This document shows, piece after piece, positions 29,016 to 44,970 of a stretch of 64,000 bases of DNA. Under the pieces are notes generated by a model. It had not been told where the DNA came from. It worked only from the letters and a program-made list of their open reading frames with translations, and ran no database searches. Positions within the stretch are counted from its first letter, which is position 1; every line of letters starts with the position of its first letter. Source of the stretch: Candidatus Saccharimonadales bacterium (GTDB taxonomy: Bacteria; Patescibacteriota; Saccharimonadia; Saccharimonadales; UBA4665); the NCBI GenBank assembly GCA_035946175.1, contig DASYZQ010000008.1, positions 1,177 to 65,176 of the forward strand, written 5' to 3'. The translations under genes and the position numbers were made by a program.

Positions 29016-29492
29016 TTATTCATTCGTTGCAGCTTGCTGCCCAGCGTTTTCGATTACAAACTCCAGATCACAGCGATGGCAATACCAAAGCTTATTCCAG
29101 CGTTTCATCTGCACAGAACGTTGCCGGGAATTGATAGCAATACGGACAATAAACACTATCAGGAACAAATTAATAAATACTGCTCCTGTATTGTATCCTA
29201 GAGGAAGACGGCCACTGGCGGTTTGTTGTATATGATGGTGAATAGTACTCCATAAAAAGTCCATAGCCGAGAAGGATATCAGCGCCGTAAAAATCTGCTG
29301 AGAGGTCTTATTCTCTGGCGGGGACATTCGACTCGCCAATGCCGTTTGATGGCTAGAATGATGAGAATGTGTATAGCTTGGGCCGAAAAAGCTAGTACTG
29401 CGACTTTTGCCCGTACTATGAGTCGTACCTGTTTTATAAATTGCAGCTGCTGACTGTACCTGGTCTATTTGATGGCATTGGGGGCACTGCAT
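29016..29492 (-). CDS. membrane protein bracketed by CxxC pairs (CPQC at N-terminus, CHRC near C-terminus)
   Basis: 158 aa with 2 hydrophobic helices. SD AGGAG lies 7 nt upstream. Confidence 0.5.
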   Translation of the reverse strand: MQCPQCHQIDQVQSAAAIYKTGTTHSTGKSRSTSFFGPSYTHSHHSSHQTALASRMSPPENKTSQQIFTALISFSAMDFLWSTIHHHIQQTASGRLPLGYNTGAVFINLFLIVFIVRIAINSRQRSVQMKRWNKLWYCHRCDLEFVIENAGQQAATNE

Positions 29493-29681
29493 GCGGGTCT
29501 CCTTTTAATATACTTTAAGTAAAGTATACTCAATTGCTGCTAATAAATTAAAGCGGTGTGGCTTGAAAATATGGACTTTGCAGCTATGTGCAGCGTCGAG
29601 TTCCTCAGAACTAACCCCGATATTCTCTAGGTGGTAACACCTTTCCGATGAATTGCTGTCAAGAATAATACTGACAGCCAC

Positions 29682-29709
29682 GACAGTAACCGGATGCCAG
29701 GCTAGTTCC
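29682..29709. repeat. 28-nt exact direct repeat, copy A (spans the stop codon of the 29702 gene)
   Basis: GACAGTAACCGGATGCCAGGCTAGTTCC, identical to 29849..29876. Confidence 0.95.
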
Positions 29710-30217
29710 GAAACTGTTCCGTAGTACACATGGGCCCATTCGCAGGCCAGATACCTACGCCTGGGACAGGAGCATAGTTGGCTCCAGCACTGGCGTGTAC
29801 CGCATTGATCCAGCTATAGTACTGAGCTGTATATGGGCCAGTTGCTGGGACAGTAACCGGATGCCAGGCTAGTTCCAACCAGTAGTGATTGACATAAGCA
29901 CCGTTACCGTCTGTTCCGACTGTATTTGGGCCATCACATTTTATCTGACCCAGTACTGAGTAAGTCCCTTTGGCGATACTATAGGGTGGATAAACATCAC
30001 AGGTGTTTGTATTGGGGTACCAACACAGTGGTGCGGTATCCCAGGTACTTATTCTGGTTCCTTGGGCGTGGGAATATCTCAGGAAATATACCCCGACTGC
30101 TCCGAATCCGCATACGAAAACAACTATAGTGATCATGCGGATATTTTGGTTTAACCAACGACGCACTTTTCCTGTTTTCTTATTCGCATTTCCTTTTGGT
30201 ATTTTTCTATTTGCCAT
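29702..30217 (-). CDS. basic N-terminus, TM-anchored Cys-containing extracytoplasmic protein
   Basis: ORF 29702..30247 begins with TTG. The first ATG (30217, MANRKIPKG) has AAAGGAAAA upstream. Confidence 0.5.
   Translation of the reverse strand: MANRKIPKGNANKKTGKVRRWLNQNIRMITIVVFVCGFGAVGVYFLRYSHAQGTRISTWDTAPLCWYPNTNTCDVYPPYSIAKGTYSVLGQIKCDGPNTVGTDGNGAYVNHYWLELAWHPVTVPATGPYTAQYYSWINAVHASAGANYAPVPGVGIWPANGPMCTTEQFRN
29849..29876. repeat. 28-nt exact direct repeat, copy B (internal, encodes ELAWHPVTV)
   Basis: Identical to 29682..29709. Confidence 0.95.
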
Positions 30218-30484
30218 TGGTGATTTTCCTTTCGCCTGTAGATTCAATATTTTTGGATAATATCATGCTTATGTTTCCTACATCAAACAGAAATAAGCAG
30301 AAACAGGGTGTTGATATAGGGCATACCCCACAAAACAGTTTGGCTTATCATATTCGATATAATCATATTCAACGGAGACAGCAGCCACCTTACCACCTCA
30401 TCTCTTCGGTAGCCTTGCAACCTTCTTAAGTTTTTAACCTCTAGCAATTTTGCATAAACTATTATCTTGTTATACTTACCCCCT

Positions 30485-30961
30485 ATGGACAAACTACGTA
30501 GCCCAAAAGACCCGAATATTGCTACGAAACTTACGGCTGCAGCACTACTCCTGGGGGTACTGGCAGGGTGCGGTACCATTACGGGCAAATCAAGTAGCCC
30601 AAGGACTGGTGGTTGCACCCAGGGCCGACAGAGAGTCAAAATAGTACCATTCAGTTCTGCATCGCCGATCGGCGATGCAGAGCCATTCATAAATTGGCCG
30701 AATATTAGGCAAGATGCTGGCAATGTCAATGGAGATGAAGAAGCCGTCGTGGTCAATTATGACGACGGCACCGTGACTAGATCACAGGCTGAGCAAAAGG
30801 CAAGAGCAGTGGCTAGGGAGGCTTCATTGGAGCTCGGCATACCAGAAGACCCGGCTGCCACTGGAGCAGTAATAGGCCCAGCAGATATTGGCAACATATT
30901 GATTGGCAAGGGAGCTAGGATCAATCAATTTATCGCCAATAACGGTTGCCTTACACAATAA
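30485..30961 (+). CDS. lipoprotein
   Basis: Lipobox LLLGVLAGC after a basic N-terminus. TATACT (30471-30476) lies 8 nt before ATG 30485. Confidence 0.6.
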   Translation: MDKLRSPKDPNIATKLTAAALLLGVLAGCGTITGKSSSPRTGGCTQGRQRVKIVPFSSASPIGDAEPFINWPNIRQDAGNVNGDEEAVVVNYDDGTVTRSQAEQKARAVAREASLELGIPEDPAATGAVIGPADIGNILIGKGARINQFIANNGCLTQ

Positions 30962-31156
30962 ATCGCCCGACCCGGGCGTCAATTTCCCACTCCAAGACCC
31001 GATAAGTCGTGCCATTATAACCATTGAAATCATTTTGTGCATAAACCACTCTCCAAGGCAGAATAACGTGGCAGGGTGGAGTGCAGCCGACGGGAGCAAG
31101 CAATATTTGCAGTAGCCCCAACGCAAGGGTAGAGTAAAAAGTAGGAGAATATCTTA

Positions 31157-31810
31157 GTGTATCCGGCAGTTGGCAAAAAAGTTGCTGAGTTTTTCACAAA
31201 CTATCCCCCTCGGCGGTTTGCGAAAGGTGAACTACTCATCCGAGCCGAGGAAGAGCCGCGCGGCATCTTTTATATTACGAAAGGGCATGTTAACCAATAT
31301 GACATATCCCTTAGTGGTATTGATGTCTTTGTTAATGTATTCAAGCCACCGGCATTTTTCCCGATGTCTTGGGCTATGAACAAAACACCGAATCACTATT
31401 TTTTTGAAGCCGCTACTTTCGTAACCGCGCGACTCGCACCACCAGATGAGACGGTCGCTTTCCTCAAAAAGAACCCCGATGTTCTTTTTGATTTGCTAGC
31501 TCGGGTATATAGAGGGACTGATGGTATGCAACGCCGTCTTGCTCATATTGTCGGCGGGGATTCGAAAAGCCGGGTGATCTTTGAATTACTCAATGCAGCT
31601 GCCCGTTTTGGGGTAGACGAAAAAGCTGCTCAGGCAGTATTCATCCCGCTTAGACAAGGTGAGCTCGCCCAGCACGCCGGATTAACTCGTGAGACAGTTA
31701 GCCGTACTATGCAACAGCTTAAAGATTCAGGACTCGCAGAAGCCGCTCGTGGCGGAATTGTGATCCACAATGTTGCCGGTCTTGAATCAATGCTTGGCAG
31801 TCAGTTATAA
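31157..31810 (+). CDS. Crp/Fnr-family transcriptional regulator
   Basis: cNMP-binding-like barrel plus a C-terminal HTH (LTRETVSRTMQQLKDSGL). GTG start with AGGAG upstream. Confidence 0.85.
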   Translation: MYPAVGKKVAEFFTNYPPRRFAKGELLIRAEEEPRGIFYITKGHVNQYDISLSGIDVFVNVFKPPAFFPMSWAMNKTPNHYFFEAATFVTARLAPPDETVAFLKKNPDVLFDLLARVYRGTDGMQRRLAHIVGGDSKSRVIFELLNAAARFGVDEKAAQAVFIPLRQGELAQHAGLTRETVSRTMQQLKDSGLAEAARGGIVIHNVAGLESMLGSQL

Positions 31811-31827
31811 CGAAGGGTAGCCGTTTC

Positions 31828-33387
31828 TCAAAGCCTAAGATGCATACCGTGATGCATCATTAAAATACCAGATTGTCCTTTACTACGCTTTCGCTGGTGC
31901 TTGGCTTGTTTGAGAAGTTGTGGGCGCAATAGAAAGGCACCAACAGCTCCAATACAAATAATGAATAATCCATATCCTATTCCTGACACTTGGGTGCTAG
32001 AAGGCTTCTTCTTTTGGGGAGTTGCTGCTGGAGTTGCCAATAGGTCATGACGGGCTGAGTGGGATGCTGGGGTAACTGATCGGGGTAAGGTAGGCGAGGT
32101 CGTATGTTGAGCATGCTGACTTGTTACCGCTGGAGATGAATTGGGGCCATTCGTCCCACCAGTGCTGCTAGTTGAAGATGTACCGGGTGCTGTCCCCGGT
32201 GACGGTGTTGATGGGGTTGATGAAGCCGGAGGGGTCGGTGCTTGGAAAACAAAAGCATATTGACTTAACATACCGAGAAGGGGGTCTCCAGGGTTTATAT
32301 CGTAAGAACAAGTTGTAGTATTGCCAGGCACAAAATCCCAAGGGATAAAACCGGCTACTCCTGCCCGAAACATAGCGGTAAGTTTGGCCTGCATTTGTGA
32401 GACCCGCTGATCAAGCGTATCGCATCCACTTGCCTGATTGCTAGCATGAATCCCTACCTCACCAACGATAAGTGGTTTATTAATCTGATTCATCTGGTTT
32501 ATTCTGACCTGCAAACCGTTGTATTGATCACCGGGAAGTGGCGAACCATCTGCGTTGTAATCGTGATAGCTAGCCACATTGATATACTGACTGTTGTTCA
32601 CCATTTGGTAATCACTGCCGGAAGTACCACACTGGCCACTGCCAATTAGACCGGAACTAATAAGATGATTGGCGTCGATATGTTTAATTTCCGCCCCAAC
32701 AGCATTAAAGAAACTGAGCAGTGCATTGGCGGCGGCAGTCTCACTGTTACAAGTCTTGTTGGTCCAACACGATGATCCGTTCGTCGGGGTGGAACAGCTC
32801 GAAGCTTCCGGTTCATTGACCGGCTCCCACATAGCGACCGTCGAGTTATTTACGTAGTGAGTAACGATCTGCTGTACGTAAGCGGCATACGATAAAGGAT
32901 CCGCCGAAGAGTTGTAGTCAGCCGTATAACCCCCCTGGTACCAAGCCAGCCCATGCCAATAGTTATCATCGCATACTCCGCCCTGATCGCTTAGTGTCAG
33001 AATCAATTTAATATTATGAGCGCTTGCGGCATTTACAACTCGGTCAAGATACGTCCAATCAATTTGCCGCGTGTTTACATTTACTGCCATCGAACCCTGA
33101 AAAGCCCACATTCTCACCATAGAGTATGGCTGTAATGAACTAAAAAAATCATTTAATTGTTGATCGGTGAATGTCGACCCACAACCACTATTACCCCCAT
33201 GGTCGCTAGCCAGCTCGTAGGCATTAATCCCTGTAAACCGATAGACCTGACCCTCATAGTAAAGTTTATTACTTTGTTGACTAATAAAGGAGGAACCTTG
33301 AGCCTCAGCGGAATTTCCACAGATAGGAATAAGTTGAAAAACTACAAAAACTAGTACGATAAAAAATATGCTTCTGTGCCGTTTCAT
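31828..33387 (-). CDS. GH5 (mannanase/cellulase-like) with signal peptide, P/S/T linker and C-terminal TM anchor
   Basis: MWEPVNEPE is the acid/base motif and IVGEVGI the nucleophile motif. A PTPPASSTPSTPSPGT linker is followed by a hydrophobic helix and a KR tail. Confidence 0.8.
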   Translation of the reverse strand: MKRHRSIFFIVLVFVVFQLIPICGNSAEAQGSSFISQQSNKLYYEGQVYRFTGINAYELASDHGGNSGCGSTFTDQQLNDFFSSLQPYSMVRMWAFQGSMAVNVNTRQIDWTYLDRVVNAASAHNIKLILTLSDQGGVCDDNYWHGLAWYQGGYTADYNSSADPLSYAAYVQQIVTHYVNNSTVAMWEPVNEPEASSCSTPTNGSSCWTNKTCNSETAAANALLSFFNAVGAEIKHIDANHLISSGLIGSGQCGTSGSDYQMVNNSQYINVASYHDYNADGSPLPGDQYNGLQVRINQMNQINKPLIVGEVGIHASNQASGCDTLDQRVSQMQAKLTAMFRAGVAGFIPWDFVPGNTTTCSYDINPGDPLLGMLSQYAFVFQAPTPPASSTPSTPSPGTAPGTSSTSSTGGTNGPNSSPAVTSQHAQHTTSPTLPRSVTPASHSARHDLLATPAATPQKKKPSSTQVSGIGYGLFIICIGAVGAFLLRPQLLKQAKHQRKRSKGQSGILMMHHGMHLRL

Positions 33388-33737
33388 TTTTTGTGTTCTA
33401 CTCCCTTTGATATGTTTGTTTCGCGCCGCAGAAGAAGAGTATACGCTATAATAAACATTAGCATAAGGCTACGTTAATGTCTGTAGCCTGTTATGAGGTA
33501 GAGTAGTCGCATAGCTTTCGGCATTCTGACCTTAACGGATATTATCCGGCACATAAGGACGCCGTAGCCGATTACACCACCCTGCGGCTCAGATCAAGGC
33601 TTGTGGGATGGTACTGATGGATATGCCAAGCGGATACATATCTACATCAACAGGAGTTTTACTTATTGTATAGTCTATGTGAATTATGTTAATATTAGAT
33701 CGAATCATTTATAACAACGAAGTAGTCGTAAGTTACT

Positions 33738-35942
33738 ATGTCAGAGAGTCGGGACAGTAGACCCGTATTATCGATTGTAGTGCCTGTATACAACGAGGAA
33801 GATAATATCGTTCCTCTGGTTCAGGCAATCCATAATGCGCTCGCTATGAGTGCTATCACATACGAGATAATTTTTGTTGATGATCACTCAGAAGACAAAA
33901 CCGTCGAGCGAATTCGCGCTTTAATGGGAACATCCCCTGTGCAGCTCTACGCTAAAGAGGGCGTTCACGGGAAAGCTCAATCATTAATTGAAGGGTTTGG
34001 GCATATTCACGGGCAGTATATCGCCATGATTGACGGGGATTTGCAGTACAATCCGCGCTACATACCGGCTATGCTCAAACCTTTAATGGATGGCACATAT
34101 GATGTCATGGTTGCCAACCGTAAGTCGCTTCATGATGATAGTAAGTTGCGACGCATAGCAAGCTACTCATTTCGAATTATCTTTGGACGATTGCTGTGGA
34201 ATATGCGCATGGATATCCAGTCCGGGCTTAAGGTATTCCGCGCCGATATCCTGCAACGAATTGCTGTTGATTCCAAGCCTTGGACCTTTGACTTGGAATT
34301 TTTGCTTAAGGCGAAAAATGCTGGCTACAAAATTGGTGAAGTTAATATCGATTTTGGCGTAAGAACCGCCGGCAAAACAAAGCTAAGGGTTCTATCAGCA
34401 AGTTACCAAATTGGTAAAGAAACTATGCGCCTTAGATTTAACCCGCCCAATTACATACCCTTCAATAAAACCGATAGTCCTAGGGATGGCTTTCACTACA
34501 GGGGTAAAGCCTATGAACCATATAACCAGCTAAATATTCACGAGACTGCTGTCCACCGTTTTTCTACCCGTCAATCCATTATCGGGGTATTTTTCGCTTT
34601 GGCCATAATTATCGGACTTATCTTCGACTTTCATGCAGTATTCGTGATTGCCATAGCAGCCCTCACAACTCTGTACCTAGGCGACTTGGTGCTGAGTCTA
34701 ATAATGGTGACTAGGAGCTACTACGGCATTGGCGCTGAGGCTGTCACCGAAGATGAAATTGCGTCACGCCAGTCCTGGCCTGTATATACAATCTTTTGCC
34801 CGCTGTATAAGGAATCGGCCATTCTTTCGCAGTTTGTGAGTGCTATGACCAAGTTGGAATATCCCAAAAATAAATTAGAAGTGATGCTACTTCTGGAATC
34901 CGATGATATAGATACGATTGCGGCAGCCCGGGACATGCAATTACCGCATTATTTCAAAATCGTTGTCGTACCGGACTCTATGCCCAAAACAAAACCTAAG
35001 GCTTGTAACTATGGGCTCAGTTTAGCAAAAGGTGAATACGCAGTTATTTATGATGCTGAGGATATCCCTGATCCACTGCAACTGAAAAAATCGGTTGTTG
35101 TTTTTAAGCGCTCAGATAGCAAGATTGGTTGCATACAGGCTAAGCTCAATTACTATAACTGGGATCAAAACATCTTAACGCGCTTATTTACTCTCGAGTA
35201 TTCCCTGTGGTTTGATCTTATCCTACCAGGGTTGCAATCAATCAACGCACCTATCCCACTCGGCGGGACATCAAATCATTTTAGAACATCGGATTTGCGC
35301 AAATTCGGCGGCTGGGATCCATTCAATGTCACTGAAGATGCTGATCTCGGTATTCGTTTGGCGAAAAATGGTTATTCCACACTGATGCTCGATTCAGTCA
35401 CAATGGAGGAAGCAAATAGTCATTATCGGAATTGGATTCGCCAACGATCGCGTTGGATTAAGGGTTATATTCAAACATACTTCGTGCATACGAGGAAAAT
35501 GACTATCAAACAAAGCCGCCGTAACTTTTCAATCTTCCATTTAATTATCGGCGGCAAGGTGCTGTCATCTTTGATAAACCCAATTCTATGGCTGTTGACC
35601 ATAAGCTATTTCCTTTTTGATCATAAGGTCGGTAGCTACATACATTCATTGTATAGCCCGGTAGTCCTCTATATCGGAATTATTGCCCTGATTGTCGGCA
35701 ACTTCTTGTATCTTTATATGTATATGCTAGGGGCGGCAAAGCGTAATCACAGCGAACTTATAATAGCCGCACTGTTGGTGCCGTTCTACTGGCTGATGAT
35801 CAGCATAGCTACACCCAAAGCAATTAAAGAGTTCATAACCAAACCATTCCACTGGCAAAAAACAATCCATGGTCTCCACCTCGCTCACATGCGACTGGAG
35901 ATCGATGATACTCACTCCCTAGCGAATGTAGAGGCAGAATGA
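33738..35942 (+). CDS. fusion of a DPM1/GtrB-like GT2 domain with a processive membrane GT2 synthase (QxxRW class)
   Basis: Domain 1: VVPVYNEED, FVDDHSED, IDGDLQY. Domain 2: YDAEDIPDP, TEDADLG, QRSRW, with TM helices on both sides. Confidence 0.85.
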   Translation: MSESRDSRPVLSIVVPVYNEEDNIVPLVQAIHNALAMSAITYEIIFVDDHSEDKTVERIRALMGTSPVQLYAKEGVHGKAQSLIEGFGHIHGQYIAMIDGDLQYNPRYIPAMLKPLMDGTYDVMVANRKSLHDDSKLRRIASYSFRIIFGRLLWNMRMDIQSGLKVFRADILQRIAVDSKPWTFDLEFLLKAKNAGYKIGEVNIDFGVRTAGKTKLRVLSASYQIGKETMRLRFNPPNYIPFNKTDSPRDGFHYRGKAYEPYNQLNIHETAVHRFSTRQSIIGVFFALAIIIGLIFDFHAVFVIAIAALTTLYLGDLVLSLIMVTRSYYGIGAEAVTEDEIASRQSWPVYTIFCPLYKESAILSQFVSAMTKLEYPKNKLEVMLLLESDDIDTIAAARDMQLPHYFKIVVVPDSMPKTKPKACNYGLSLAKGEYAVIYDAEDIPDPLQLKKSVVVFKRSDSKIGCIQAKLNYYNWDQNILTRLFTLEYSLWFDLILPGLQSINAPIPLGGTSNHFRTSDLRKFGGWDPFNVTEDADLGIRLAKNGYSTLMLDSVTMEEANSHYRNWIRQRSRWIKGYIQTYFVHTRKMTIKQSRRNFSIFHLIIGGKVLSSLINPILWLLTISYFLFDHKVGSYIHSLYSPVVLYIGIIALIVGNFLYLYMYMLGAAKRNHSELIIAALLVPFYWLMISIATPKAIKEFITKPFHWQKTIHGLHLAHMRLEIDDTHSLANVEAE

Positions 35943-38494
35943 CCCGCAAACGTCAACTATCTATCGGGGTGGGTGCAATCATTGCCAGCAGCATTATTGC
36001 TTGGGTTGTAACCTACGCGCATCATTTGGTTACCACTTATAGCGATGCAATGTCGCGCCTGGATATTGCACGAATGGTAGTCGATAACCTGCAGCCGGGG
36101 CTGGCACAGCTTGGTAGTGTTTGGTTGCCCCTCAATCAACTCTTCAGCCTACCGCTCATATGGAATACCTGGGCTTGGCATAGTGGTTTTGCCGGTAGCT
36201 TCATATCGATGGCGTCCTATGTAGTGGCGACTGTCTACGTCTTTAAAATCATACGAGAGCTTACCAGTAACCAGCTCGCCGCAGGACTCGGTGCGTTAGC
36301 CTTTGGGCTAAACCCAAACCTGCTGTATTTACAATCTACACCCCTAACTGAGCCACTGTTCTTAGCCCTAATGATTACTGGGACATGCTACCTCATACGT
36401 TACCTTAAAACGCGTGATCCAAAATTTCTAGCACTTGCCGCTGTTCTATTGGCTCTACAAGTTCTGACGCGCTATGATGGCTGGTTCATCGCCGGCATAG
36501 ATACGCTCGTTCTGCTCGGGGCAGAGCTAATAGTCTACAAGCAGGCGATCAAGAAGGTTATTGGAACTCTTACTCTATTTTTAACCCCGGCTCTGATAGC
36601 CATGCTTTTATGGTTCTTATGGAATTATCTAATTTTTGGGAATATTCTGTACTCGTTCACTGGGCCATATTCAGCACATGCTCAGCAAGCTGTTATTCAG
36701 GCACGAAGTGGTCTTATTACCAAAAACAACCTACTTATCTCATCAAAGGCCTTTGGCCTTGATGCTCTCCTTAATATTGGGGTATTCGTTACCTTGGCCG
36801 GCATTGCCGGCTGGGCATTATATCTTATTAGAACGAACACATTGCCGATAAAGATGCGACTGTTAATCGCCAACCTACTGCTTGCCGCTATCGCGTTCAA
36901 TATTATCGCCCTCTTCATAGGCTTTTCTATCCTGAACATCCCCGAGCTGCACTGGGCCCCATCGCATACGTTGGCTGGTGAGTATTTTAATGTACGCTAC
37001 GGTATAACCGCCCTTCCTTTCGTAGCAGTTGGCTTCGGATTGTTAGCCGCAAAATTACGGCCGTCGTTTAGGCTGCTTCTGATCCCGTTGGTATTCTTGC
37101 AATTTGGGCTATTAGTCGGAGGAGGGCTGATTACTGTCAAAGATGGGACTATCGGCAGTAGTGCTTTTCTGAATCAGGATATCGCTGCAGCGATTAAGGC
37201 TGACGTTGCCAAAAATGATCGGGTTGTCATGTCCAGTTCAGTTTTTAACGGCGTGATGTTTGAAAGTGGGCTTAATCTCAAACAATACATCCATGAAGGA
37301 GTGAGCAGGGAATGGCAGGCAGCAATTGCTGACCCAACCTTGTATGCAAAATGGGTAGTAACTGCCAACGGTAATTTCGGCGATCCAGTATATAACAGTT
37401 TGGTAACCAAAGAGAGAAGCGTATTCTTACGATCTTACAAATTAGTATATGCCGGGCAACATGCCAACTTATATATGCGATTGGCGCCATATGATCAGTT
37501 CATAGGTATAGCGCACAACCAACTGGAATTCAACGACACCACCTTCCAAATACGAGGCGTTAACTCCTACGATCTCGCCTATCAGAGCAATGCGCAAATT
37601 GCTGACACGTTTAAAGCGCTACAGCAGGCCCACGTCAATACAGTACGTTTCTGGCTTTTTGGGGATGGCATTGCTAACGGGTTTCAGCCGAGTGCTGGTA
37701 TTTTGAATGAGAAAAGTCTCGAAAAAACGGACTACATTTTAGCGCAGGCATATAACTATCGTATACGAGTGATGCCAACACTCGTCAACAACTTCAACGA
37801 CTACGGCGGAGCAAACCAATATGTTTCATGGGTCGGCTTGGACAATGCTCACGACCAATTCTTTACCAATCCGACTATCATTGCACTCTATGAGAATTAC
37901 CTAAACCATATACTGTCACGCAATAACCATCTGCGTGGTATCGAGTATAGTAACGATCCGACCATCGCCGCTTGGGATATTATGAATGAGCCACGCACTG
38001 ACAACGGCAATACGGCACCAATTGCCACCTGGGCGAATCAAATTGCGCGGTATATAAAACAGAAAGACTCCAATCATCTGGTAACTATTAGTCTGGATAA
38101 ACCCACAGCCGACAGCGGCGAGAGCACCATCTGTGCTAGCCAATACCTTGATTTCTGCTCAATGCATATCTACCCACAGGATCCCGGCATCGCGTCATAT
38201 ACTTCTTACCCGCAAGAGCTGCAAGCAATAACCAAGTACAAACAGATCGCCAGCAGCATTAAGAAACCGGCCGTTGTCAGCGAAATCGGCATATCCAAGG
38301 CGTATCAACCATTTAATCAGCCACCACTGCCAGTCCTTAGTGACTCCTTACAGGCTATCAACAAAGACGGATACAGCGGTTGGCTAATATGGAATTGGTC
38401 TCAAAATCCTGATAGCTCCTTTGGGTTTTCGCCAGATGGCACCAATGGGTTGTACACCCAAAATGACCTCGAAGGGCTGACGGCCCTTCGATGA
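35939..38494 (+). CDS. polytopic (GT-C/PMT-like?) N-terminal domain fused to a C-terminal GH5 domain
   Basis: About 12 TM segments in aa 1-400. C-terminal IRGVNSYDL, VRFWLFGDG, WDIMNEPR and VVSEIG motifs. ATGA overlap with the synthase gene. Confidence 0.75.
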   Translation: MTRKRQLSIGVGAIIASSIIAWVVTYAHHLVTTYSDAMSRLDIARMVVDNLQPGLAQLGSVWLPLNQLFSLPLIWNTWAWHSGFAGSFISMASYVVATVYVFKIIRELTSNQLAAGLGALAFGLNPNLLYLQSTPLTEPLFLALMITGTCYLIRYLKTRDPKFLALAAVLLALQVLTRYDGWFIAGIDTLVLLGAELIVYKQAIKKVIGTLTLFLTPALIAMLLWFLWNYLIFGNILYSFTGPYSAHAQQAVIQARSGLITKNNLLISSKAFGLDALLNIGVFVTLAGIAGWALYLIRTNTLPIKMRLLIANLLLAAIAFNIIALFIGFSILNIPELHWAPSHTLAGEYFNVRYGITALPFVAVGFGLLAAKLRPSFRLLLIPLVFLQFGLLVGGGLITVKDGTIGSSAFLNQDIAAAIKADVAKNDRVVMSSSVFNGVMFESGLNLKQYIHEGVSREWQAAIADPTLYAKWVVTANGNFGDPVYNSLVTKERSVFLRSYKLVYAGQHANLYMRLAPYDQFIGIAHNQLEFNDTTFQIRGVNSYDLAYQSNAQIADTFKALQQAHVNTVRFWLFGDGIANGFQPSAGILNEKSLEKTDYILAQAYNYRIRVMPTLVNNFNDYGGANQYVSWVGLDNAHDQFFTNPTIIALYENYLNHILSRNNHLRGIEYSNDPTIAAWDIMNEPRTDNGNTAPIATWANQIARYIKQKDSNHLVTISLDKPTADSGESTICASQYLDFCSMHIYPQDPGIASYTSYPQELQAITKYKQIASSIKKPAVVSEIGISKAYQPFNQPPLPVLSDSLQAINKDGYSGWLIWNWSQNPDSSFGFSPDGTNGLYTQNDLEGLTALR

Positions 38495-38603
38495 GCAGTG
38501 AATTCGGACACATCTTTGTTAAATTTCACATTTTATCTTGCGTTACTGTTAATCTCTGATACAGTCTAAGATAATATCAATTATTACAAGGTTAGGTTAT
38601 TAC

Positions 38604-40493
38604 ATGAAACGGATACTACTATTTGGATTACCACTTGCTTTGGCCGTACTGGTAGGGGCTGCTGCAGTATTTGCAAAAACGGTCAATGCTAGCTCACCAA
38701 CACCTCTAGGGGGCATGAATCTATCTGGTTATTGCACGAGCCAGTCACAAGGCAGTGCCACATTAAATGGTGCTGTTTGGGATTGCAGTAACAACAATCA
38801 GCCCATCGACATGAATGCAGCCTGTGTTTGGCAATATAACATTACTGGGGCGTATGCTTCCGAGACCAGACCAAATGATCCGTATTCGTATGAATGCTTT
38901 TCAAACACAACACCGCCAACCGATTTAGGAGGGATGAGCTTAGATCAGTACTGCAGCGCCATCAATGAAGGTCCCTATTCTTACTTAAACGGACAGGTAT
39001 GGAGTTGTACCGGAAATGGTCAGCCCATCGACATGAATGCAGCCTGTGTTTGGCAATATAACATTACTGGGGCGTATGCCGCTGAATCAGTGCCCGGTAA
39101 TGTATATACTTACAACTGTTATTCCCAAGGCACGACACCACCACCCAACGCAACCGATGACTGGCCAACATATAAGTATGGAGCAACTCGTAGCAGCTAC
39201 AACAACCAAGAGACAATCATCAATGCCAGCTCAGCAGCTAATCTCAAGCAAATTCTAGACATTGCTCCGGCAGCGCCAGGAGCCGTTATTTCAGATCAAC
39301 CTGCTGTTGTTAACAACGTCATGTACTATGGTGACTGGTCAGGCAATTTTTATGCAAAAAATATCAATGGTACTGTTCTGTGGAGTAAAAATTTAGGAGT
39401 TATGACACCCCCAGCAGCCAATAGCTGTAGTCCAAAAAGTCTCGGTGTTGTCAGTAGCCCAAGTGTCAGAACAATAAGTGTCAATGGTGTCGGAACCCCC
39501 ATCGTCTATATAACCGGTGCGGATGGATTTATGTATGCGCTTTACGCAAGCAACGGCAACGTCTTATGGAGGACTCAGTTGACTGATCCAACAACCGGAG
39601 GTCTGCTTTGGGACTCACCTGCCGAATACGACGGAAGTGTATTTGTCGGGCTAGCATCATATGGTGACTGCCCACTCGTGCAAGGCAAAGAATTTAAATT
39701 GAACTGGCGGACAGGGGCGATGCAGGCAGTAGCCAAACTCGTACCGGATGGTTGTGTTGGAGCAGGTGAATGGGCATCACCGACTATTGATCAAACCAAC
39801 AATAAGATCTATATCTCAACCGGCACCCAAGATAATTCATGCAAGGTAAACGGGCAACCCTACGTAGAACCAAACGCCCTGGCAATCGTAGAGCTTGATC
39901 TGAACCTTAATATACTAGGCTCATGGCGAATACCGTCATCAGAACAGGGTATCGATAGTGATTTCGGTGTTTCACCGGCACTCACAACTGCCACGATTAA
40001 CGGCGTATCGACACAATTAGTGTCAGGCGGCAATAAGAATGGACGTTATTACATATTTAAGCGTGATGCACTATCAGCAGGCCCAATAACAGATAAGGTC
40101 TTAGGCCAAGGTGGTACTTGCCCTGATTGTGGCAATGGGACTATTTCATCGTCCGCAACTGATGGCAAGGTACTATATCAGGGTACCGGCAGCACTACGG
40201 TTAATGGCGTAAGCTATAAATCAACGATCGTAGCCATGAATCCGGCCAATGGGGCAATCATATGGCAACATGGGTTTGCTCATGCGGTTGTTGCGACACC
40301 AACACTACTTCAGGGTGTACTCATAGTGCCAGAGGGCAATAATCTTGATCTTATCAATACCGCAAACGGCAATGAAATACGACAGGTTACTCCTCCAGGA
40401 GCAGGTTCAGTATTCGACGCACCGGCAGCCGTAGCCCGCGGCAGAATATTCTTAGGTGACCTGAATGGCAACTTCTACGAATTTGGCGTTTAA
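38604..40493 (+). CDS. secreted PQQ/BamB-like beta-propeller protein with two N-terminal 74-aa Cys-rich modules
   Basis: Signal peptide, duplicated QPIDMNAACVWQYNITGAYA modules, and repeated propeller blades (GNFYAKN..., GFMYALYASNGNVLW, GNFYEFGV). Confidence 0.75.
   Translation: MKRILLFGLPLALAVLVGAAAVFAKTVNASSPTPLGGMNLSGYCTSQSQGSATLNGAVWDCSNNNQPIDMNAACVWQYNITGAYASETRPNDPYSYECFSNTTPPTDLGGMSLDQYCSAINEGPYSYLNGQVWSCTGNGQPIDMNAACVWQYNITGAYAAESVPGNVYTYNCYSQGTTPPPNATDDWPTYKYGATRSSYNNQETIINASSAANLKQILDIAPAAPGAVISDQPAVVNNVMYYGDWSGNFYAKNINGTVLWSKNLGVMTPPAANSCSPKSLGVVSSPSVRTISVNGVGTPIVYITGADGFMYALYASNGNVLWRTQLTDPTTGGLLWDSPAEYDGSVFVGLASYGDCPLVQGKEFKLNWRTGAMQAVAKLVPDGCVGAGEWASPTIDQTNNKIYISTGTQDNSCKVNGQPYVEPNALAIVELDLNLNILGSWRIPSSEQGIDSDFGVSPALTTATINGVSTQLVSGGNKNGRYYIFKRDALSAGPITDKVLGQGGTCPDCGNGTISSSATDGKVLYQGTGSTTVNGVSYKSTIVAMNPANGAIIWQHGFAHAVVATPTLLQGVLIVPEGNNLDLINTANGNEIRQVTPPGAGSVFDAPAAVARGRIFLGDLNGNFYEFGV
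38798..38857. repeat. 60-nt exact repeat, copy A
   Basis: TCAGCCCATCGACATGAATGCAGCCTGTGTTTGGCAATATAACATTACTGGGGCGTATGC, identical to 39020..39079 (offset 222 nt). Confidence 0.95.
39020..39079. repeat. 60-nt exact repeat, copy B
   Basis: Identical to 38798..38857. Confidence 0.95.
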
Positions 40494-40527
40494 GTAAAAC
40501 TCAGCAGACGGTGATCATCCGATTTGT

Positions 40528-41109
40528 CTACCGGAAGTGTACGAGCATCATAAATGCCAGCACCATTCCTAATAGGAACCACCAAAACGTATCTGCTCCT
40601 GACTGTATGATCCGGTGTAATATGTGCTGACCAGTTTTACCAACTCGCAGATCAGCTTCATTAAGTCGCAGCAAACTCCAGTTGATCATAAGCAGCCCCG
40701 CGAAACAAAATAGACAAAGAATGCAGAGCGTATGAATGTGGTAGGTGCTTTGCCAGAGAAACCACGAGCCAAAACAAACGAAGAATAAGGCCAGCCCTTG
40801 CAGCGTCAGACGTAGCCGGCGTGCTATCGTGCTGCCGCTGACACCCGCTAAACCAGCACCCAGAAGCAGCGTGAAAAACGTTATACACATCAACGCATTC
40901 GGAAAGCCGAATATCGAACTCTGCCAGGCATTGAGAACATTAGAGCAGCTAAAAACACCGTTAATATTACAGGTAAGCACTGCGTGGGGATTTTTCAGCA
41001 GGATAACATATTCGACCATCTCCAGAAAAGAGGCGATAAGGCCAAGGGCAGCACCGGAAACCAAAATCGAATAGAGAAAGCGTTTGTTCATATGCAAAGA
41101 ATGTAGCAT
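40528..41109 (-). CDS. vitamin K epoxide reductase (VKOR) family protein
   Basis: Loop Cys pair (LTCNINGVFSCSNVL), the FGFPNA motif, and CILC in a TM helix. Confidence 0.75.
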   Translation of the reverse strand: MLHSLHMNKRFLYSILVSGAALGLIASFLEMVEYVILLKNPHAVLTCNINGVFSCSNVLNAWQSSIFGFPNALMCITFFTLLLGAGLAGVSGSTIARRLRLTLQGLALFFVCFGSWFLWQSTYHIHTLCILCLFCFAGLLMINWSLLRLNEADLRVGKTGQHILHRIIQSGADTFWWFLLGMVLAFMMLVHFR

Positions 41110-41211
41110 ATAACCCCTGCCACACTTGTGACCCAGATCAAAATCTTATGAATAGTACATTGACGGATATACTCCGAAAGCAGATGCTACTCACTCGGAG
41201 CCCGGGTTGTT

Positions 41212-42414
41212 TTATCTAAGTATTTGTTCAAATGTGTAATATGCTGGCTTCTTGCTTCCGTCACTTTGCAAAAGCCCGAAAAATTTCTCATTGGTAGAGG
41301 GATCTGCCCCACTGTCTTTGTAGGTATACCAGAACAATGGCCCTAACCAGGAAGATGACCGCACATAAGCAACCGCCTGCTGAGCCATAATAGCTTGGAG
41401 CGCCTCATCGACATGATCTGGAGAAGTATTGGTGTTGTATCCTTTCTGGGTTGCTTCTGCACCTGGACCGTTAGTAGGAGCACCGTATTCGGTGAGCCAG
41501 AGAAGTTTTTTACTATCACCGTTCGTGATCATAATATTCCGTAGACTATCTTGTGTATTGTCGATCATCGACCAACCGCTCCAGCCTGCTGTCTGGTCTG
41601 GCAGGGCAGGAAAGGAGTATGGATGATAGCCAACGGCATTAAAGTAGGGCCCGGCACCATACTTGTAGACATCGGCGAGAAAGGCTGGAGCGGCAATACT
41701 TTGCGAAAACTGATCCATTACTCCGAGGCCGCCGCTTATAACCGTCGCCTGGGGCTCTACCGACCTTATAGCCGGATAGACCGCCTTTAGAAGTGCCGCG
41801 TAAGCCCTTGGATCCGGCGCTGGCCGCCAAAACCCCATAAGGTTAGGTTCGTTCCATATCTCCCAGTCGTGCACTCCTTGAGGTTTGAAGTGAAGTACTG
41901 CTGCTTGTGCAAAAGAGGCAAACTGTGCCGGATCTGCAGGCGCGCACTTATCCGTGCTATCACAGTTCGCCAGCCTCGCCCACTGAGGAGCGTAGGCAAG
42001 CGTAGGAAGGACGTGAAGCTTGTATCGTGAGGCCGTATCGACGATACCATCATACGCTGACCAGTCATAACCGTTCGGACCGTCAGCCTGTACTGTCTCC
42101 CACTGTATGTCAAAACGAATCCAGGTAAAACCGAGGTGGGCTACATCGGCAAGTTCGGATGCCAACTCAGAGCTAGATAGATACTGGAGCGTGCCGCCGA
42201 ACGACATGCCAAATGCTGCCCGTCTTACCGGCGAAGCATGGGTGGTACTTGTTTTCTGGTTTGCCACAGAAGACCCACTGTTCACAACTATATTTGCCGC
42301 GGCTGCTACAGCAAGCAAAAAGGTAAGCGCCATGGCAAGAAGGCCTGGTGTAGGCCGGAACGGCCATAACCCGCTACGCCGCCCCAACGTCATGAGTCTT
42401 TGTTTGTACATCAT
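41212..42414 (-). CDS. clan GH-A (GH5-like) glycoside hydrolase with N-terminal TM anchor
   Basis: WEIWNEPN and LWLTEYG motifs. Start trimmed to ATG 42414 (MMYKQR), because ATG 42504 would leave only 16 nt to the divergent gene. Confidence 0.7.
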   Translation of the reverse strand: MMYKQRLMTLGRRSGLWPFRPTPGLLAMALTFLLAVAAAANIVVNSGSSVANQKTSTTHASPVRRAAFGMSFGGTLQYLSSSELASELADVAHLGFTWIRFDIQWETVQADGPNGYDWSAYDGIVDTASRYKLHVLPTLAYAPQWARLANCDSTDKCAPADPAQFASFAQAAVLHFKPQGVHDWEIWNEPNLMGFWRPAPDPRAYAALLKAVYPAIRSVEPQATVISGGLGVMDQFSQSIAAPAFLADVYKYGAGPYFNAVGYHPYSFPALPDQTAGWSGWSMIDNTQDSLRNIMITNGDSKKLLWLTEYGAPTNGPGAEATQKGYNTNTSPDHVDEALQAIMAQQAVAYVRSSSWLGPLFWYTYKDSGADPSTNEKFFGLLQSDGSKKPAYYTFEQILR

Positions 42415-42520
42415 TGCATTTGTGTTTCGTAAGGATATACTGCCATTATAAGAGGTAGCAAAACAAAAAGAAAGCTTATATAATAAAAATAAGCTAAATT
42501 TCATAAACCAGGGAGATTGT

Positions 42521-43786
42521 GTGAAGCAAAAGCTACTGGCCCTGCGTCAAGATACCTTGTTCAGAAATTCGATTTACTTAATGGTATCCACAGGCATTAT
42601 GGCACTATTGGGCTTCGTGTTTTGGCTGATCAACGCTCGGTTGTTTACGCCTTCCCAGATCGGGGTTGCCACAACATTGATCTCGGCAATGAATCTGATC
42701 TCCTATATCGCACTCTTGGGTTTTAACAGCACGTTCATTAGATTTCTACCAACCTCTAAAGACAGAAGCAATGAAATAAATACCGGCTTACTGCTGTCGA
42801 TTATTATGGCTGCGCTGGTCTCGACTGGCTATATTCTACTCATACCATACATCGCTCCGAAACTTGGCATTGTGCATCACAATCCGTGGTACGCAATCGG
42901 TTTCGTGATTATGGCCGCGTTAGCGGCCATAAATCTACTCACCGACAGCATTTTCATAGCCTACCGGGCGGCAAAATATAATCTGCTGATCGACGGTATT
43001 ATTATGAGTAGCATCAAGTTAGCGCTACCTTTCTTGTTGGTTGGGTTGGGCGCCTATGGGGTATTTGCCGCTTCCGGCTCGGCGGCATCAGTTGCTATGG
43101 CCCTAAGTATCCTCTTCTTGACGCTTAGGTTTAACTATAGACCGGAATTCAAAATACGGACCTCTACACTTAGAAAAGTACTCCATTATTCTTTTTCGAA
43201 TTACGTTGGCAATCTTCTTAACATTGCACCAACCCTGGTATTACCACTGGTCGTGATCAATCATTTGGGAGCAGCCGCGGCCGGCTACTATTATCTAGCG
43301 TTTATGGTCGCCAATCTACTCTATACAGTGGTATATGCCGTATCACAGTCACTTTTTGCTGAAGGCTCATATGCCAACCAAACACTACGGGAACTAGTAA
43401 AGCGCTCCAGCGCCGTAGTTGCGGGTATAATGGTGCCGGGGACAATCATACTATACTTCGGGGCTCACCTAATACTTGGCACCTACGGCAAGAATTATGG
43501 CAGCAAGGCTTCGAGCCTGCTAACCGTACTCGCTCTGGCTGCTCCGGCAGTGGCCATTTATACAATCGTGACAGTACTACTTCGCATCAACAAGCAGGTC
43601 TACTCCCTAATAGTTGTTAATATTATCTATCTCCTTACTATTTCCGGCTTTGCAACGCTGTGGGTAGACAGAGGTCTTAAGTGGATCGGTTATGCCTGGG
43701 CGATGGGGCAGATAACTGCCGGCTTGGCTGGTCTATTAGTGCTTCTGTTGGGGCATAAGTCCAAAGTTCAGGAGGCTATATTGTGA
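42521..43786 (+). CDS. polysaccharide flippase (MOP/Wzx-like)
   Basis: About 12 TM segments. GTG start with GGGAG upstream. Confidence 0.75.
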   Translation: MKQKLLALRQDTLFRNSIYLMVSTGIMALLGFVFWLINARLFTPSQIGVATTLISAMNLISYIALLGFNSTFIRFLPTSKDRSNEINTGLLLSIIMAALVSTGYILLIPYIAPKLGIVHHNPWYAIGFVIMAALAAINLLTDSIFIAYRAAKYNLLIDGIIMSSIKLALPFLLVGLGAYGVFAASGSAASVAMALSILFLTLRFNYRPEFKIRTSTLRKVLHYSFSNYVGNLLNIAPTLVLPLVVINHLGAAAAGYYYLAFMVANLLYTVVYAVSQSLFAEGSYANQTLRELVKRSSAVVAGIMVPGTIILYFGAHLILGTYGKNYGSKASSLLTVLALAAPAVAIYTIVTVLLRINKQVYSLIVVNIIYLLTISGFATLWVDRGLKWIGYAWAMGQITAGLAGLLVLLLGHKSKVQEAIL

Positions 43787-44904
43787 GGCATCTGGTACAA
43801 GTAGTCGCCCTATATAACCCCCCGCACGTAGGTGGCATGGAAATGCGCGCCAGGGATCGGGCAGAGCGACTCACTAAAAGGGATTGGACAGTAGAAACCC
43901 TAACCTCAAGTGAGAAAACCTACCCGCACGTTGTTGAAGACAACAACCTAACTGTGCGTTATCTCAAAAGCAAAGAAATCGCGCGCACGCCGATTATATT
44001 TTCCTTGCCATTTTCCCTTATGAAGATCCCCAAAGACAGTATCGTACAGGTTGAGACGGCCATAGCCTTCTGTCCAGAAATTACGGCATTTATCTGCAAA
44101 CTCAGGGGTATATCATACATTGCGAGGGTACCGCTCGATTCGACTGGCCACAGTAAGCTCAGAGATAAGTTGCTAAGTTACTACCAGAAGTCAGCGCTTA
44201 GGTGGGTATATAAGCATGCGGCGAGGATAATTGTGCTCACCGAGGACGATGTGGTCCACATTTCCGAGAAGTATCACGTTGATCCTAAAAAATTTCGTAT
44301 TATCCCCAATGCGACTGATTTTGTTCCAGTGAAAGCACCTCGGAAGGACTTCCATAAACCTTTCAGGCTATTGTTCGAGGGCAGGATTGCTGGGCAGAAA
44401 AACGTGCCGCTACTACTCGAGTCGCTACGCTACTTCCTTGATACATATGCACTGCCAGTCCATCTGAATATAGTCGGGGACGGCGAGGGAATGCCGACAG
44501 TCAGAGATAAGATAAAGGAGCTATCGCTTCAAAAATACGTCAGTCTGAATGGATTCGTAACCGGTAGAAAGGTCGAAGAATACTTTGAAGATGCCGATGC
44601 CTTCGTCATGAGCTCAACACATGAGTCCTTCCCTCAGACGCTGCTCGAGGCCATGGCTAAAGGCCTCCCCATGATAACAAGCAATATTTTAGGTGTGCGT
44701 ACGGTCGTGAAAGATGGCAAGAGCGGCATTCTGGTAGATCTGGCCAAGGAGAGCTTTGCAAACGCATTCCACCGACTCATAGTTGAAAAAAAGTTATATC
44801 AGAAGCTGGCCAACGGGTCTTTCGAAGAAGCCAAGAAATATAGCTGGGATGCAACTATAGACGCATATCTAGATCTATATACTGAGCTACAGCCCGTAAA
44901 ATAG
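43783..44904 (+). CDS. GT4 glycosyltransferase
   Basis: ESFPQTLLEAMAKGLPMI motif. GTGA overlap with the flippase gene. Confidence 0.85.
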   Translation: MRHLVQVVALYNPPHVGGMEMRARDRAERLTKRDWTVETLTSSEKTYPHVVEDNNLTVRYLKSKEIARTPIIFSLPFSLMKIPKDSIVQVETAIAFCPEITAFICKLRGISYIARVPLDSTGHSKLRDKLLSYYQKSALRWVYKHAARIIVLTEDDVVHISEKYHVDPKKFRIIPNATDFVPVKAPRKDFHKPFRLLFEGRIAGQKNVPLLLESLRYFLDTYALPVHLNIVGDGEGMPTVRDKIKELSLQKYVSLNGFVTGRKVEEYFEDADAFVMSSTHESFPQTLLEAMAKGLPMITSNILGVRTVVKDGKSGILVDLAKESFANAFHRLIVEKKLYQKLANGSFEEAKKYSWDATIDAYLDLYTELQPVK

Positions 44905-44970
44905 TATTTCCCGTTGATCGATTTGTGGCAGCTTGGTTCGAGTGCCGTCGCCTAAGCTAAGGCCAAATAC

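Follow-up and report, generated by a model that had tools for sequence, protein, structure and literature searches.

What glycan, and by what route, might be made by a gene set in which a fused pair of glycosyltransferases (GTs), a polytopic membrane protein ending in a glycoside hydrolase (GH) and a secreted propeller protein are encoded one after another? The question is raised by positions 33,738 to 40,493 of a 64,000-nucleotide stretch of contig DASYZQ010000008.1, which we refer to in its full length as the window, from a soil Saccharimonadales bacterium of the Candidate Phyla Radiation (CPR, or Patescibacteria). These bacteria account for a large share of bacterial diversity and live attached to host cells, and to our knowledge almost nothing is known of their surface glycans. 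An earlier description drawn from the DNA letters (hereafter the sequence-only reading) treated the three genes as an operon that follows the logic of the Bcs cellulose systems. We find that the polytopic domain is itself a glycosyltransferase, of the GT-C fold, and our results suggest that the genes probably form one envelope-glycan assembly module that uses a polyprenyl-phosphate-linked sugar.

Domains of the gene pair and of a divergent neighbour

The three open reading frames (ORFs) lie exactly where the sequence-only reading had placed them, all on the plus strand, and a fourth related gene, encoding a GH5 mannanase-like surface protein that we call up519, is found just outside that range at 31828-33387 on the minus strand. 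The ORFs and the features of gene 1, gene 2 and up519 are as follows, with the basis of each assignment in brackets.

33738-35942, plus strand: gene 1 ORF, 734 amino acids (aa)
33738-34445, plus strand: polyprenyl-phosphate glycosyltransferase (PPGT) domain, a GT2 resembling DPMS, GtrB and ArnC, gene 1 residues 1-236 (Pfam, PDB, Foldseek)
34566-34724, plus strand: hydrophobic helical linker, probably a transmembrane (TM) hairpin, gene 1 residues 277-329 (AlphaFold2 helix, hydropathy)
34755-35507, plus strand: synthase-type GT-A domain, gene 1 residues 340-590 (Pfam, NCBIfam, Foldseek)
35517-35840, plus strand: C-terminal TM helices, gene 1 residues 594-701 (AlphaFold2 helices, invariant columns)
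35939-38494, plus strand: gene 2 ORF, 851 aa
35939-37483, plus strand: GT-C glycosyltransferase, ArnT/PMT_2-like, gene 2 residues 1-515 (AlphaFold2, Foldseek, PMT_2)
37484-38494, plus strand: GH5 domain of beta-mannanase (GH5_7-like) type, extracytoplasmic, gene 2 residues 516-851 (PDB, Foldseek, invariant columns)
38604-40493, plus strand: gene 3 ORF, 629 aa
31828-33387, minus strand: up519, a divergent surface-anchored GH5 protein, 519 aa (translation, PDB matches)

Genes 1 and 2 overlap by ATGA, as had been claimed, and the overlap can be read in the sequence as gcagaATGAcccgc; gene 3 follows after an AT-rich gap of 109 nucleotides that lies behind a stem-loop at 38469-38491. The proposed three-gene operon therefore holds for genes 1 and 2, the only pair demonstrably coupled, whereas the membership of gene 3 is unproven given this spacer. 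Scans for consensus promoters and terminators returned counts no better than those in shuffled sequence and do not settle the operon boundaries, and scans of the window for riboswitches, RNAs and tRNAs gave no matches. Proteins identical to the three products are labelled by NCBI as ‘glycosyltransferase’, ‘cellulase family glycosylhydrolase’ and ‘hypothetical protein’, respectively. All motifs quoted previously were recovered (DxD, TED and QRSRW in gene 1; WDIMNEPR and VVSEIG in gene 2), and identical architectures are present in many independent assemblies (NCBI, JGI, ENA and Logan); since both fusions are repeated in this way, we reject the possibility that they are assembly chimeras.

Gene 1 fuses a DPM1/GtrB-like GT2 with a second, membrane GT2 that has the fold and motifs of processive synthases, an assignment on which Pfam, NCBIfam, PDB comparisons, alignment and Foldseek agree with the earlier description. 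Its relatives form at least 120 clusters at 49-73% identity, almost all of them full length; conservation was assessed in an alignment of 24 homologues (mean column identity 60%), and structure in an AlphaFold2 model with a predicted local distance difference test (pLDDT) score of 81.9. Within the N-terminal half, Pfam places Glycos_transf_2 at residues 12-168, the motif IDGDLQY is present, and D48/D49 and D99-x-D101-LQY are invariant. Its PDB sequence matches include the Pyrococcus dolichyl-phosphate-mannose (Dol-P-Man) synthase 5mlz (1.2e-21), GtrB (2.5e-15) and ArnC (8e-14), and its best NCBIfam match is AglJ (8e-25). Foldseek likewise matched this half to DPMS (5mlz, 5.8e-16, root-mean-square deviation (rmsd) 3.4 over 238 columns), GtrB and ArnC; the Foldseek rmsd was 2.8-3.5 Å over about 230 columns. 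PPGT activity is predicted from these matches, the best of which are to mannose (DPMS) and hexose (AglJ) enzymes. Membrane attachment is predicted to be by a model helix at residues 218-234 and then by the hydrophobic helix at 277-329, the latter joining the two cytoplasmic GT-A domains of the protein.

The C-terminal half carries YDAEDIPD, NVTEDADLG and QRSRW; in the same alignment D439-x-x-D442, T532-E533-D534 and Q569-R-S-R-W573 are invariant, and D390 is invariant or nearly so. Pfam matches Glyco_tranf_2_3 (2.2e-34) and Glyco_trans_2_3 at residues 350-639, and a Glyco_transf_21 match was also obtained in gene 1. NCBIfam scores for PgaC_IcaA (1.2e-34, 119.9 bits against a cut-off of 422.3), CelA (6e-25, 87.3 bits against 699.1) and NodC (34 bits against 550) fall far under the cut-offs and place gene 1 outside these named equivalogs. 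By structure, the half matches BcsA at about 1e-16 (4p00, 2.2e-16) and the hyaluronan synthase HAS (8smn/7sp7) with target-normalised TM-scores (TMt) of 0.53-0.56 over 438-458 columns; the best TM-score match is PcManGT (TMt 0.71), at an identity of only 19-20%. PcManGT has a compact cellulose-synthase-like fold and was solved with GDP-mannose bound (PMC12595478). Invariant aromatic and polar residues are unusually frequent in the helices that follow the QRSRW interface helix in gene 1 (W618, Y624, F656, Y658, Y660, Y662, Y684 and W685), and after these helices the protein ends in an invariant P-x-x-W-x-K-T-x-H-G tail.

The N-terminal part of gene 2 had been described as a polytopic domain of about 12 TM segments; we find about 11 TM helices and a GT-C enzyme, given a fold match to ArnT and the presence of PMT_2 in the family. 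An AlphaFold2 model of gene 2 (pLDDT 90.8) matched ArnT (5f15) in Foldseek with an E-value of 6e-8 and a probability of 1.00 (605 aligned columns, TMt 0.57). Pfam PMT_2 (PF13231) was matched by 18 of 20 members of the GT-C family, the best at 3.1e-8, and precomputed PF13231 annotations are listed for many gene 2 homologues; the gene 2 protein of the window has no PMT_2 match of its own and only a faint Pfam match to Mannosyl_trans4. A profile of the family found no match among PDB sequences, the link to ArnT being one of fold comparison, and no curated NCBIfam model was found for the family. Pfam and NCBIfam scans of gene 2 and its family gave no match to the PMT family proper (GT39 Pmt), and a standalone gene 2 relative is named ‘glycosyltransferase family 39’ by NCBI.

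The topology of gene 2, derived from the model helices and the positive-inside rule, comprises 11 TM helices with the N-terminus inside and the C-terminus outside, which places the GH5 domain outside the cell. All of the conserved polar motifs come to lie at the outer face (D36/R45/D49, Q132/T134/E138, R178-Y-D180, S245-Q250 and N351/R353/Y354); the first of them follows TM1 in a loop where R45 and D49 do not vary and D36 hardly does, and R178-Y-D180 is invariant too. A small soluble domain occupies residues 405-515. As the membrane domain is a GT-C enzyme, it and the DPM1-like domain of gene 1 make a pair of donor user and donor maker, for which the previously suggested parallel with BcsA, BcsZ and BcsB/C is the wrong template; PilZ, BcsB, BcsC and GH8 were all sought and not found in genes 1-3 or their neighbours.

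The GH5 domain at the C-terminus of gene 2 is real, as had been proposed, and its catalytic residues are intact by sequence, structure and alignment. Pfam places the GH5 family Cellulase (PF00150) at residues 532-823 with 39 bits against a cut-off of 23.5, and across 38 homologues there is no variation at R570, N683-E684, H743, Y745, E782 or W818. The top 16 PDB sequence matches (1.4e-39 to 1.4e-8) are without exception beta-mannanases or beta-mannosidases, among them BlMan5_7 (8gf3, 1.4e-39), soybean 9m20, tomato LeMAN4a (1rh9, 5.6e-35) and Thermotoga 3pz9. The same is true of the top 31 Foldseek matches, with TMt of 0.75-0.80 to 8gf3, 1rh9, 3pz9 and 4qp0, and the database entry identical to gene 2 carries the precomputed Pfam annotation PF26410 ‘GH5_mannosidase’. 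Directly upstream of gene 1 and transcribed divergently from it, up519 was left unannotated by Pfam. It consists of a signal peptide, a GH5 domain (NEP acid/base, GEVG nucleophile), a linker of about 100 aa rich in Ser, Thr and Pro, and a C-terminal TM anchor; its GH5 domain shares 24% identity with the gene 2 GH5 (E 1e-14), and its PDB sequence matches are all beta-mannanases or a beta-mannosidase (best 1qno, 7e-9). The view that the product cannot be read from the sequence was thus too pessimistic: both GH5 domains fall among beta-mannanases, and the type of the gene 2 domain, judged from sequence and model matches, predicts that its substrate is most likely among the beta-mannans.

Distribution and fusions among relatives

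A profile of gene 1 was run against GTDB with each species represented by a single genome; relatives of the synthase are encoded in at least 595 species representatives, and 80 of these loci were analysed. Most of them are from Patescibacteria; Dormibacterota, Chloroflexota and Ktedonobacteria are also represented, and some belong to Actinomycetota or Bacillota. In 58 of the 80, the synthase gene is followed on its own strand by a GT-C homologue, within 1.2 kb in 25 loci and at 1.6-9.8 kb in 33; of the 22 loci with no downstream GT-C, 12 have less than 3.5 kb of downstream sequence. The synthase occurs alone in 30 loci, as PPGT-synthase in 19, as giant PPGT-synthase-GT4 proteins in 17, as synthase-GT4 in seven and in the swapped order synthase-PPGT in two. 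Synthase and GT-C are one protein in six Chloroflexota loci. Pfam confirmed this arrangement in the cultured Thermogemmatispora aurantia A1-2 (NZ_BKZV01000001.1, locus L059, 10733-14125, 1130 aa) and as a single polypeptide in a Ktedonobacterales metagenome-assembled genome (locus L066, 10726-14598), each with a separate PPGT-like gene before the fusion; in L059 the two genes together span 9899-14125. A GH5 accompanies the GT-C in only six of the 80 loci, and of the best 120 clusters of gene 2 relatives roughly 85 have both parts, GT-C and GH5, while 35 consist of the GT-C by itself, at about 520 aa.

The conserved core is accordingly the synthase plus the GT-C, with the GH5 as an optional add-on. 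Both fusions had been called unusual; as a statement of rarity this is wrong, since they recur across many lineages, mostly within Patescibacteria. Linkage across phyla, together with fusions in every pairwise combination, indicates that the PPGT, the synthase-type GT2 and the GT-C belong to a single pathway. The genes that follow the Chloroflexota fusions encode a propeller protein with a ConA-like (DUF1349/GH43_C2) domain in the Ktedonobacterales genome and a Ser/Thr kinase-WD40 protein in T. aurantia.

The neighbourhood as a whole also recurs in close relatives. Locus L081 contains genes 1, 2 and 3 and an up519-like GH5, while L082 and L083 contain gene 1, gene 2, an up519-like GH5 with a C-terminal Cys-rich module, and gene 3; up519 orthologues are thus part of the same cluster in all three. 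Locus L084 (61% identity) lacks the propeller and has a GtrA-family gene beside the gene pair, and a Pacebacteria locus has the gene pair only. The expectation that the three-gene synteny would be found in other genomes therefore held, but the propeller is not conserved with the pair, being present in one of the 80 species-level loci and confined to a narrow Saccharimonadales clade. About 3.5 kb upstream of the cluster in L081, a PGI/PMI-type SIS protein and a phosphomannomutase/phosphoglucomutase are encoded at 1344-4234 on the minus strand; these genes may hint at mannose supply, or may be there by coincidence.

A longer form occurs in Microgenomates, where genes for a kinase-like protein, two GT2s, a CE4 deacetylase and an unknown protein lie between that of the giant GT and that of the GT-C. 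Two such giants, from Woesebacteria/Patescibacteria (L021, 9920-14626; L016, 9941-14806), are single ORFs of 1568-1621 aa that comprise a PPGT, a synthase, some 450 aa with no annotation and a GT4; the genes downstream of them encode an APH/choline-kinase-like protein, two GT2s, a CE4 deacetylase, an unknown protein of 511 aa and the GT-C.

A proposed mechanism and its competitors

For the Saccharimonadales locus we offer a specific mechanism as a plausible yet tentative one. The C-terminal half of gene 1 would polymerise a beta-linked backbone from nucleotide sugar at the cytoplasmic face and thread it through its own TM helices. Its N-terminal half would load one sugar, for which mannose or another hexose is the likeliest candidate, onto polyprenyl phosphate, and a GtrA- or Wzx-type flippase would flip the lipid-linked sugar. 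At the outer face, the GT-C of gene 2 would add alpha-linked branch residues to the emerging polymer, and the GH5 fused to it, together with up519, would cleave or reshape the beta-backbone, whether to set its length, to release it or to remodel the wall. Gene 3 would be a clade-specific extracellular partner whose Cys-rich modules probably bind the same polymer. The division of roles is drawn from stereochemistry: an inverting GT2 yields a beta-glycan, the kind of substrate that GH5 enzymes cleave, whereas an inverting GT-C acting on a beta-polyprenyl-phosphate-sugar yields an alpha-branch that they do not cut, so the synthase-type GT2 would make the GH5-cleavable backbone and the GT-C the branches. 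Because both GH5 domains are of the beta-mannanase type, the backbone is most likely mannan-like, either beta-1,4-mannan-like or glucomannan-like, which would give a galactomannan-like architecture overall.

All parts of the module belong to known superfamilies, and by analogy it can be viewed as a hybrid of a synthase-dependent pathway and extracellular glycosylation of the Gtr/Csb/Gac type, with a plant-like mannanase attached. The Bcs, Pga, HAS and NodC-chitin synthases share with it a membrane-embedded inverting GT2, the D/DxD/TED/QxxRW motifs and TM helices after the interface helix, and the role of BcsZ as a dedicated glycanase encoded alongside has its likeness here in an enzyme of GH5 mannanase type rather than GH8. 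It differs from synthase-dependent systems in that no PgaA or PgaB homologue is present, in that the partner is a GT-C and in that the host is a monoderm-type CPR cell; we know of no described synthase system with a GT-C partner, nor of any for which the combination of three GTs has been described.

The GtrA/B/C, CsbB-GtcA-YfhO, GtlA-GtcA-GtlB, GacI/J-GacK-GacL, ArnC-ArnE/F-ArnT and Ppm1-Pmt systems have in common with this module a GT-A that makes a polyprenyl-phosphate-monosaccharide and a GT-C that uses it outside. In multi-component transmembrane glycosylation a GT-A makes a C55-phosphate-sugar, GtrA or Wzx flips it, and a PMT_2-type GT-C decorates wall polymers (PMC8035078). The GT-Cs of the known systems are multi-pass proteins with an acidic motif in an outer loop, several of them PMT_2 members; the larger ones bear carbohydrate-binding domains outside the cell, and a partner protein may be required by smaller ones to bind the acceptor (PMC8035078). 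Here, in contrast, the GT-A is fused to a synthase GT2 and the GT-C to a hydrolase, the cluster encodes no flippase, the GT-C family has no curated NCBIfam model, and the GT-C would presumably act on a polymer made by the synthase, not on teichoic acid, rhamnan, O-antigen or lipid A. The machinery for plant galactomannan and glucomannan (CslA, GT34 and GH5_7) has the same predicted chemistry, namely a beta-mannan-type backbone, alpha-linked single-sugar branches and a GH5_7-type mannanase; it differs in using a Golgi GT34 with UDP-galactose where this module would use a GT-C with a lipid-linked donor outside, and the mannan here is one that we infer. PcManGT, for its part, is archaeal and has neither a fused PPGT nor a GT-C partner. 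Literature searches, some of them directed at a CPR synthase-GT-C-GH5 system, brought up no description of one.

Several considerations weigh against the mechanism and call for caution. The equivalog scores of gene 1 are so far under their cut-offs that the product cannot be transferred by homology. Processivity is likewise unproven by the modelled fold or by QxxRW, both of which are common also to PcManGT; that protein (PDB 6yv7/6yv9, from Pyrobaculum calidifontis) was deposited simply as a mannosyltransferase and is said to have been described originally as a non-processive enzyme of an N-glycan pathway. That the synthase product is the acceptor of the GT-C is suggested by association. The GH5 belongs to a minority of loci, which may restrict the mannan assignment to this sub-clade, and the GT4, GT2, CE4 and kinase-like genes of the long-form operons hint that the glycan of those operons may be N-acetylated or of greater complexity. 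The cluster itself has no flippase gene, and a Wzx gene lies 2 kb downstream; a tblastn search of the window with the GtrA of L084 gave no match, and a hydropathy screen of its small ORFs gave no convincing GtrA candidate. More generally, the reading as a whole is built on prediction from sequences and models.

One may postulate alternative scenarios in which the same enzymes act differently. Synthesis could be lipid-primed, such that the PPGT makes a polyprenyl-phosphate-hexose primer, the synthase-like GT2, with the GT4 and GT2s of the long forms, elongates and translocates the chain, the GT-C moves the whole chain to protein, wall or lipid, and the GH5 sets its length. Archaeal N-glycosylation based on dolichyl phosphate (AglJ, then AglB) and the synthase-dependent O-antigen route that ends in WaaL would be analogous, and the best NCBIfam match of the PPGT is indeed AglJ, a Dol-P-hexose initiating enzyme (8e-25). 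A fusion of initiator and elongator would be natural under this scenario, as would that of synthase and GT-C, and the long-form operons have several cytoplasmic GTs, with no gene for Wzx, Wzy or an ABC exporter on the stretch that leads from the giant GT to the GT-C. Yet the enzymes that the GT-C resembles, those of ArnT/PMT_2 type, take single sugars from monophosphate carriers, all characterised bacterial pairs of PPGT and PMT_2 GT-C move single residues (PMC8035078), and STT3, PglB and AglB were matched in none of the searches; we therefore regard whole-chain transfer as unlikely. Assembly of a lipomannan-like lipoglycan, in which the synthase-like GT2 would act as a GT21- or PcManGT-like enzyme to make a glycolipid anchor onto which the GT-C polymerises polyprenyl-phosphate-sugar outside, would account for the Glyco_transf_21 match in gene 1, for PcManGT as the best TM-score match, and for the GT4 fusions of the long forms, which recall PimA/PimB-type steps; the envelope of CPR bacteria is also of the Gram-positive type, in which lipoglycans are common. 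If the GT-C built a polymer from beta-polyprenyl-phosphate-sugar, however, its linkages would be alpha and it would be no substrate for the fused GH5, and the conserved aromatic-rich TM helices after QRSRW suit a glycan channel better than a lipid GT, which makes this scenario very unlikely.

Two further alternatives were considered. In the first, the PPGT (Ppm1-like) and the GT-C (Pmt-like) would O-mannosylate secreted proteins such as up519 and gene 3, with synthase and GH5 acting separately. In its favour, up519 has a long Ser/Thr/Pro linker (about 100 aa) and gene 3 has TTPP linkers, the best solved relative of the PPGT is a Dol-P-Man synthase, and a standalone relative bears the family 39 name at NCBI. 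Set against this, the searches gave matches to generic PMT_2 only and none to the true PMT family, and both the linkage and fusion of GT-C and synthase across phyla and the fusion to GH5 would be left unexplained; we judge protein O-glycosylation highly improbable. A catabolic role, in which the GH5s would digest environmental beta-mannan of plants or fungi to feed the cell and their adjacency to GTs would be incidental, draws on the presence of two surface-exposed mannanase-type GH5 domains and on the dependence of CPR bacteria on scavenged sugars. It is barely credible given that in about 85 of the best 120 clusters the GH5 and a GT-C are parts of one polypeptide, that the GT-C-GH5 protein is translationally coupled to the synthase gene, and that the cluster has no sugar transporter or downstream catabolic genes.

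Returning to backbone synthesis with extracytoplasmic branching, a broader generalisation is possible, though we think it somewhat unlikely in its full form: that these loci represent an unrecognised class of envelope-glycan pathway in Patescibacteria, Chloroflexota and Dormibacterota in which a synthase GT2 is obligatorily partnered with or fused to an outward-facing GT-C, the product in Saccharimonadales being a branched beta-mannan. Backbone synthesis and translocation would, in such a class, be physically coupled to extracytoplasmic modification by a lipid-linked sugar, and the beta-mannan of Saccharimonadales would be matured by GT-C-tethered and surface-anchored mannanases of GH5_7 type and bound by a new Cys-rich carbohydrate-binding module. 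With the synthase in at least 595 species and a GT-C in most loci examined, the module is among the more widespread CPR envelope gene sets. A branched beta-mannan would imply a bacterial route to a class of polymer known mainly from plants, and, as we know of no earlier bacterial beta-mannan synthase system, the first of its kind; it would also bring new enzymes, among them a GT-C/GH5 chimera, and a new binding module. Thermogemmatispora aurantia, which carries a PPGT and the fused synthase-GT-C, is cultured, so the hypothesis is directly testable.

Gene 3 and the surrounding window

Gene 3 and the gene that follows it contain the following features.

38604-38678, plus strand: signal peptide or signal anchor of gene 3, MKRILLFGLPLALAVLVGAAAVFA (single N-terminal hydrophobic segment)
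38679-39164, plus strand: two tandem Cys-rich modules, gene 3 residues 26-187 (sequence)
39165-40493, plus strand: PQQ_2/BamB-type propeller, gene 3 residues 188-629 (Pfam)
40528-41109, minus strand: VKOR-family disulfide-forming membrane protein (Pfam VKOR, 7.5e-24)

The sequence-only reading of gene 3 as a secreted PQQ/BamB-type propeller with two novel Cys-rich modules is supported: the protein bears a signal peptide, and neither module has a credible Pfam family. Pfam supports the propeller with PQQ_2 (39.1 bits against a cut-off of 27.6) and PQQ (30.7 against 26.7), while the NCBIfam scores for BamB (TIGR03300, 39.3 against 285.2) and PQQ_enz_alc_DH (35.2 against 480) do not reach their cut-offs; the PDB matches, to BamB and methanol dehydrogenase, are weak, at 8e-6. 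Close homologues of gene 3 share contigs with homologues of genes 1 and 2. Given its occurrence in one of the 80 loci and its recurrence only in close relatives, the propeller is a clade-specific accessory rather than a conserved component of the system. A Bcs-like scaffold role had been suggested for gene 3; we reject it as a general feature on account of this restricted distribution, the weak BamB match and the fact that CPR cells have no outer membrane.

Each Cys-rich module is about 70 aa long with four Cys residues, and linkers rich in Thr and Pro (TTPP) lie between them. No credible Pfam match was obtained for the modules at E <= 10, and the module is rare, with 202 representatives among 1.84 billion proteins at E <= 1e-3. 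It is also mobile, occurring on tyrosinase, phosphoesterase, propeller and fn3/Ig proteins, and in L082 and L083 it sits C-terminally on the up519-like GH5. We predict that it is probably a binding module and, because relatives have it joined to the neighbouring GH5, that it probably binds the polymer proposed above. The VKOR-family protein encoded next to gene 3 may assist the secreted Cys-rich proteins, a weak association; its gene is absent from L081, L082, L084 and L085.

Further downstream, the minus-strand gene at 41212-42504 was considered as a third mannanase and rejected. Pfam labels its product GH5, yet its solved relatives are PslG (4zn2, 1e-25) and GH39 xylosidases, which makes it PslG-like, of GH39 type, and it has no significant similarity to the GH5 of gene 2; it is probably the glycanase of the adjacent Wzx/GT4 cluster and stands outside the mannanase set.

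The window as a whole is a dense island of envelope-glycan genes. A fusion-rich glycan locus begins with a 1524-aa protein (44971-49545, minus strand) that has two complete GT4 units and a second, different GT-C-like membrane domain (PMT_2/DUF2206), and continues with a fusion of CE4 deacetylase and GT4 (49542-51395), a GT4, a GT2 and a pectate-lyase-like protein (54613-56562). On the other side of the gene set, a second Wzx-type cluster at 15909-26090 (plus strand) comprises a flippase and five GT2/GT4 genes and ends in a 1245-aa CBM_4_9 protein. The window starts with a polyprenyl synthetase gene (81-887, plus strand), and the region 3181-4446 (minus strand) encodes an EamA transporter and, at 4108-4446, a 112-aa protein with three to four TM helices; all of these genes are too distant from the cluster to be tied to the handling of polyprenyl-phosphate-sugar. 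GC content is 0.44-0.49 across 28001-46000, the region that contains the cluster, and 0.51-0.525 on either side of it, at 16-28 kb and 54-60 kb, a dip that could mark a horizontally acquired or fast-evolving glycan island.

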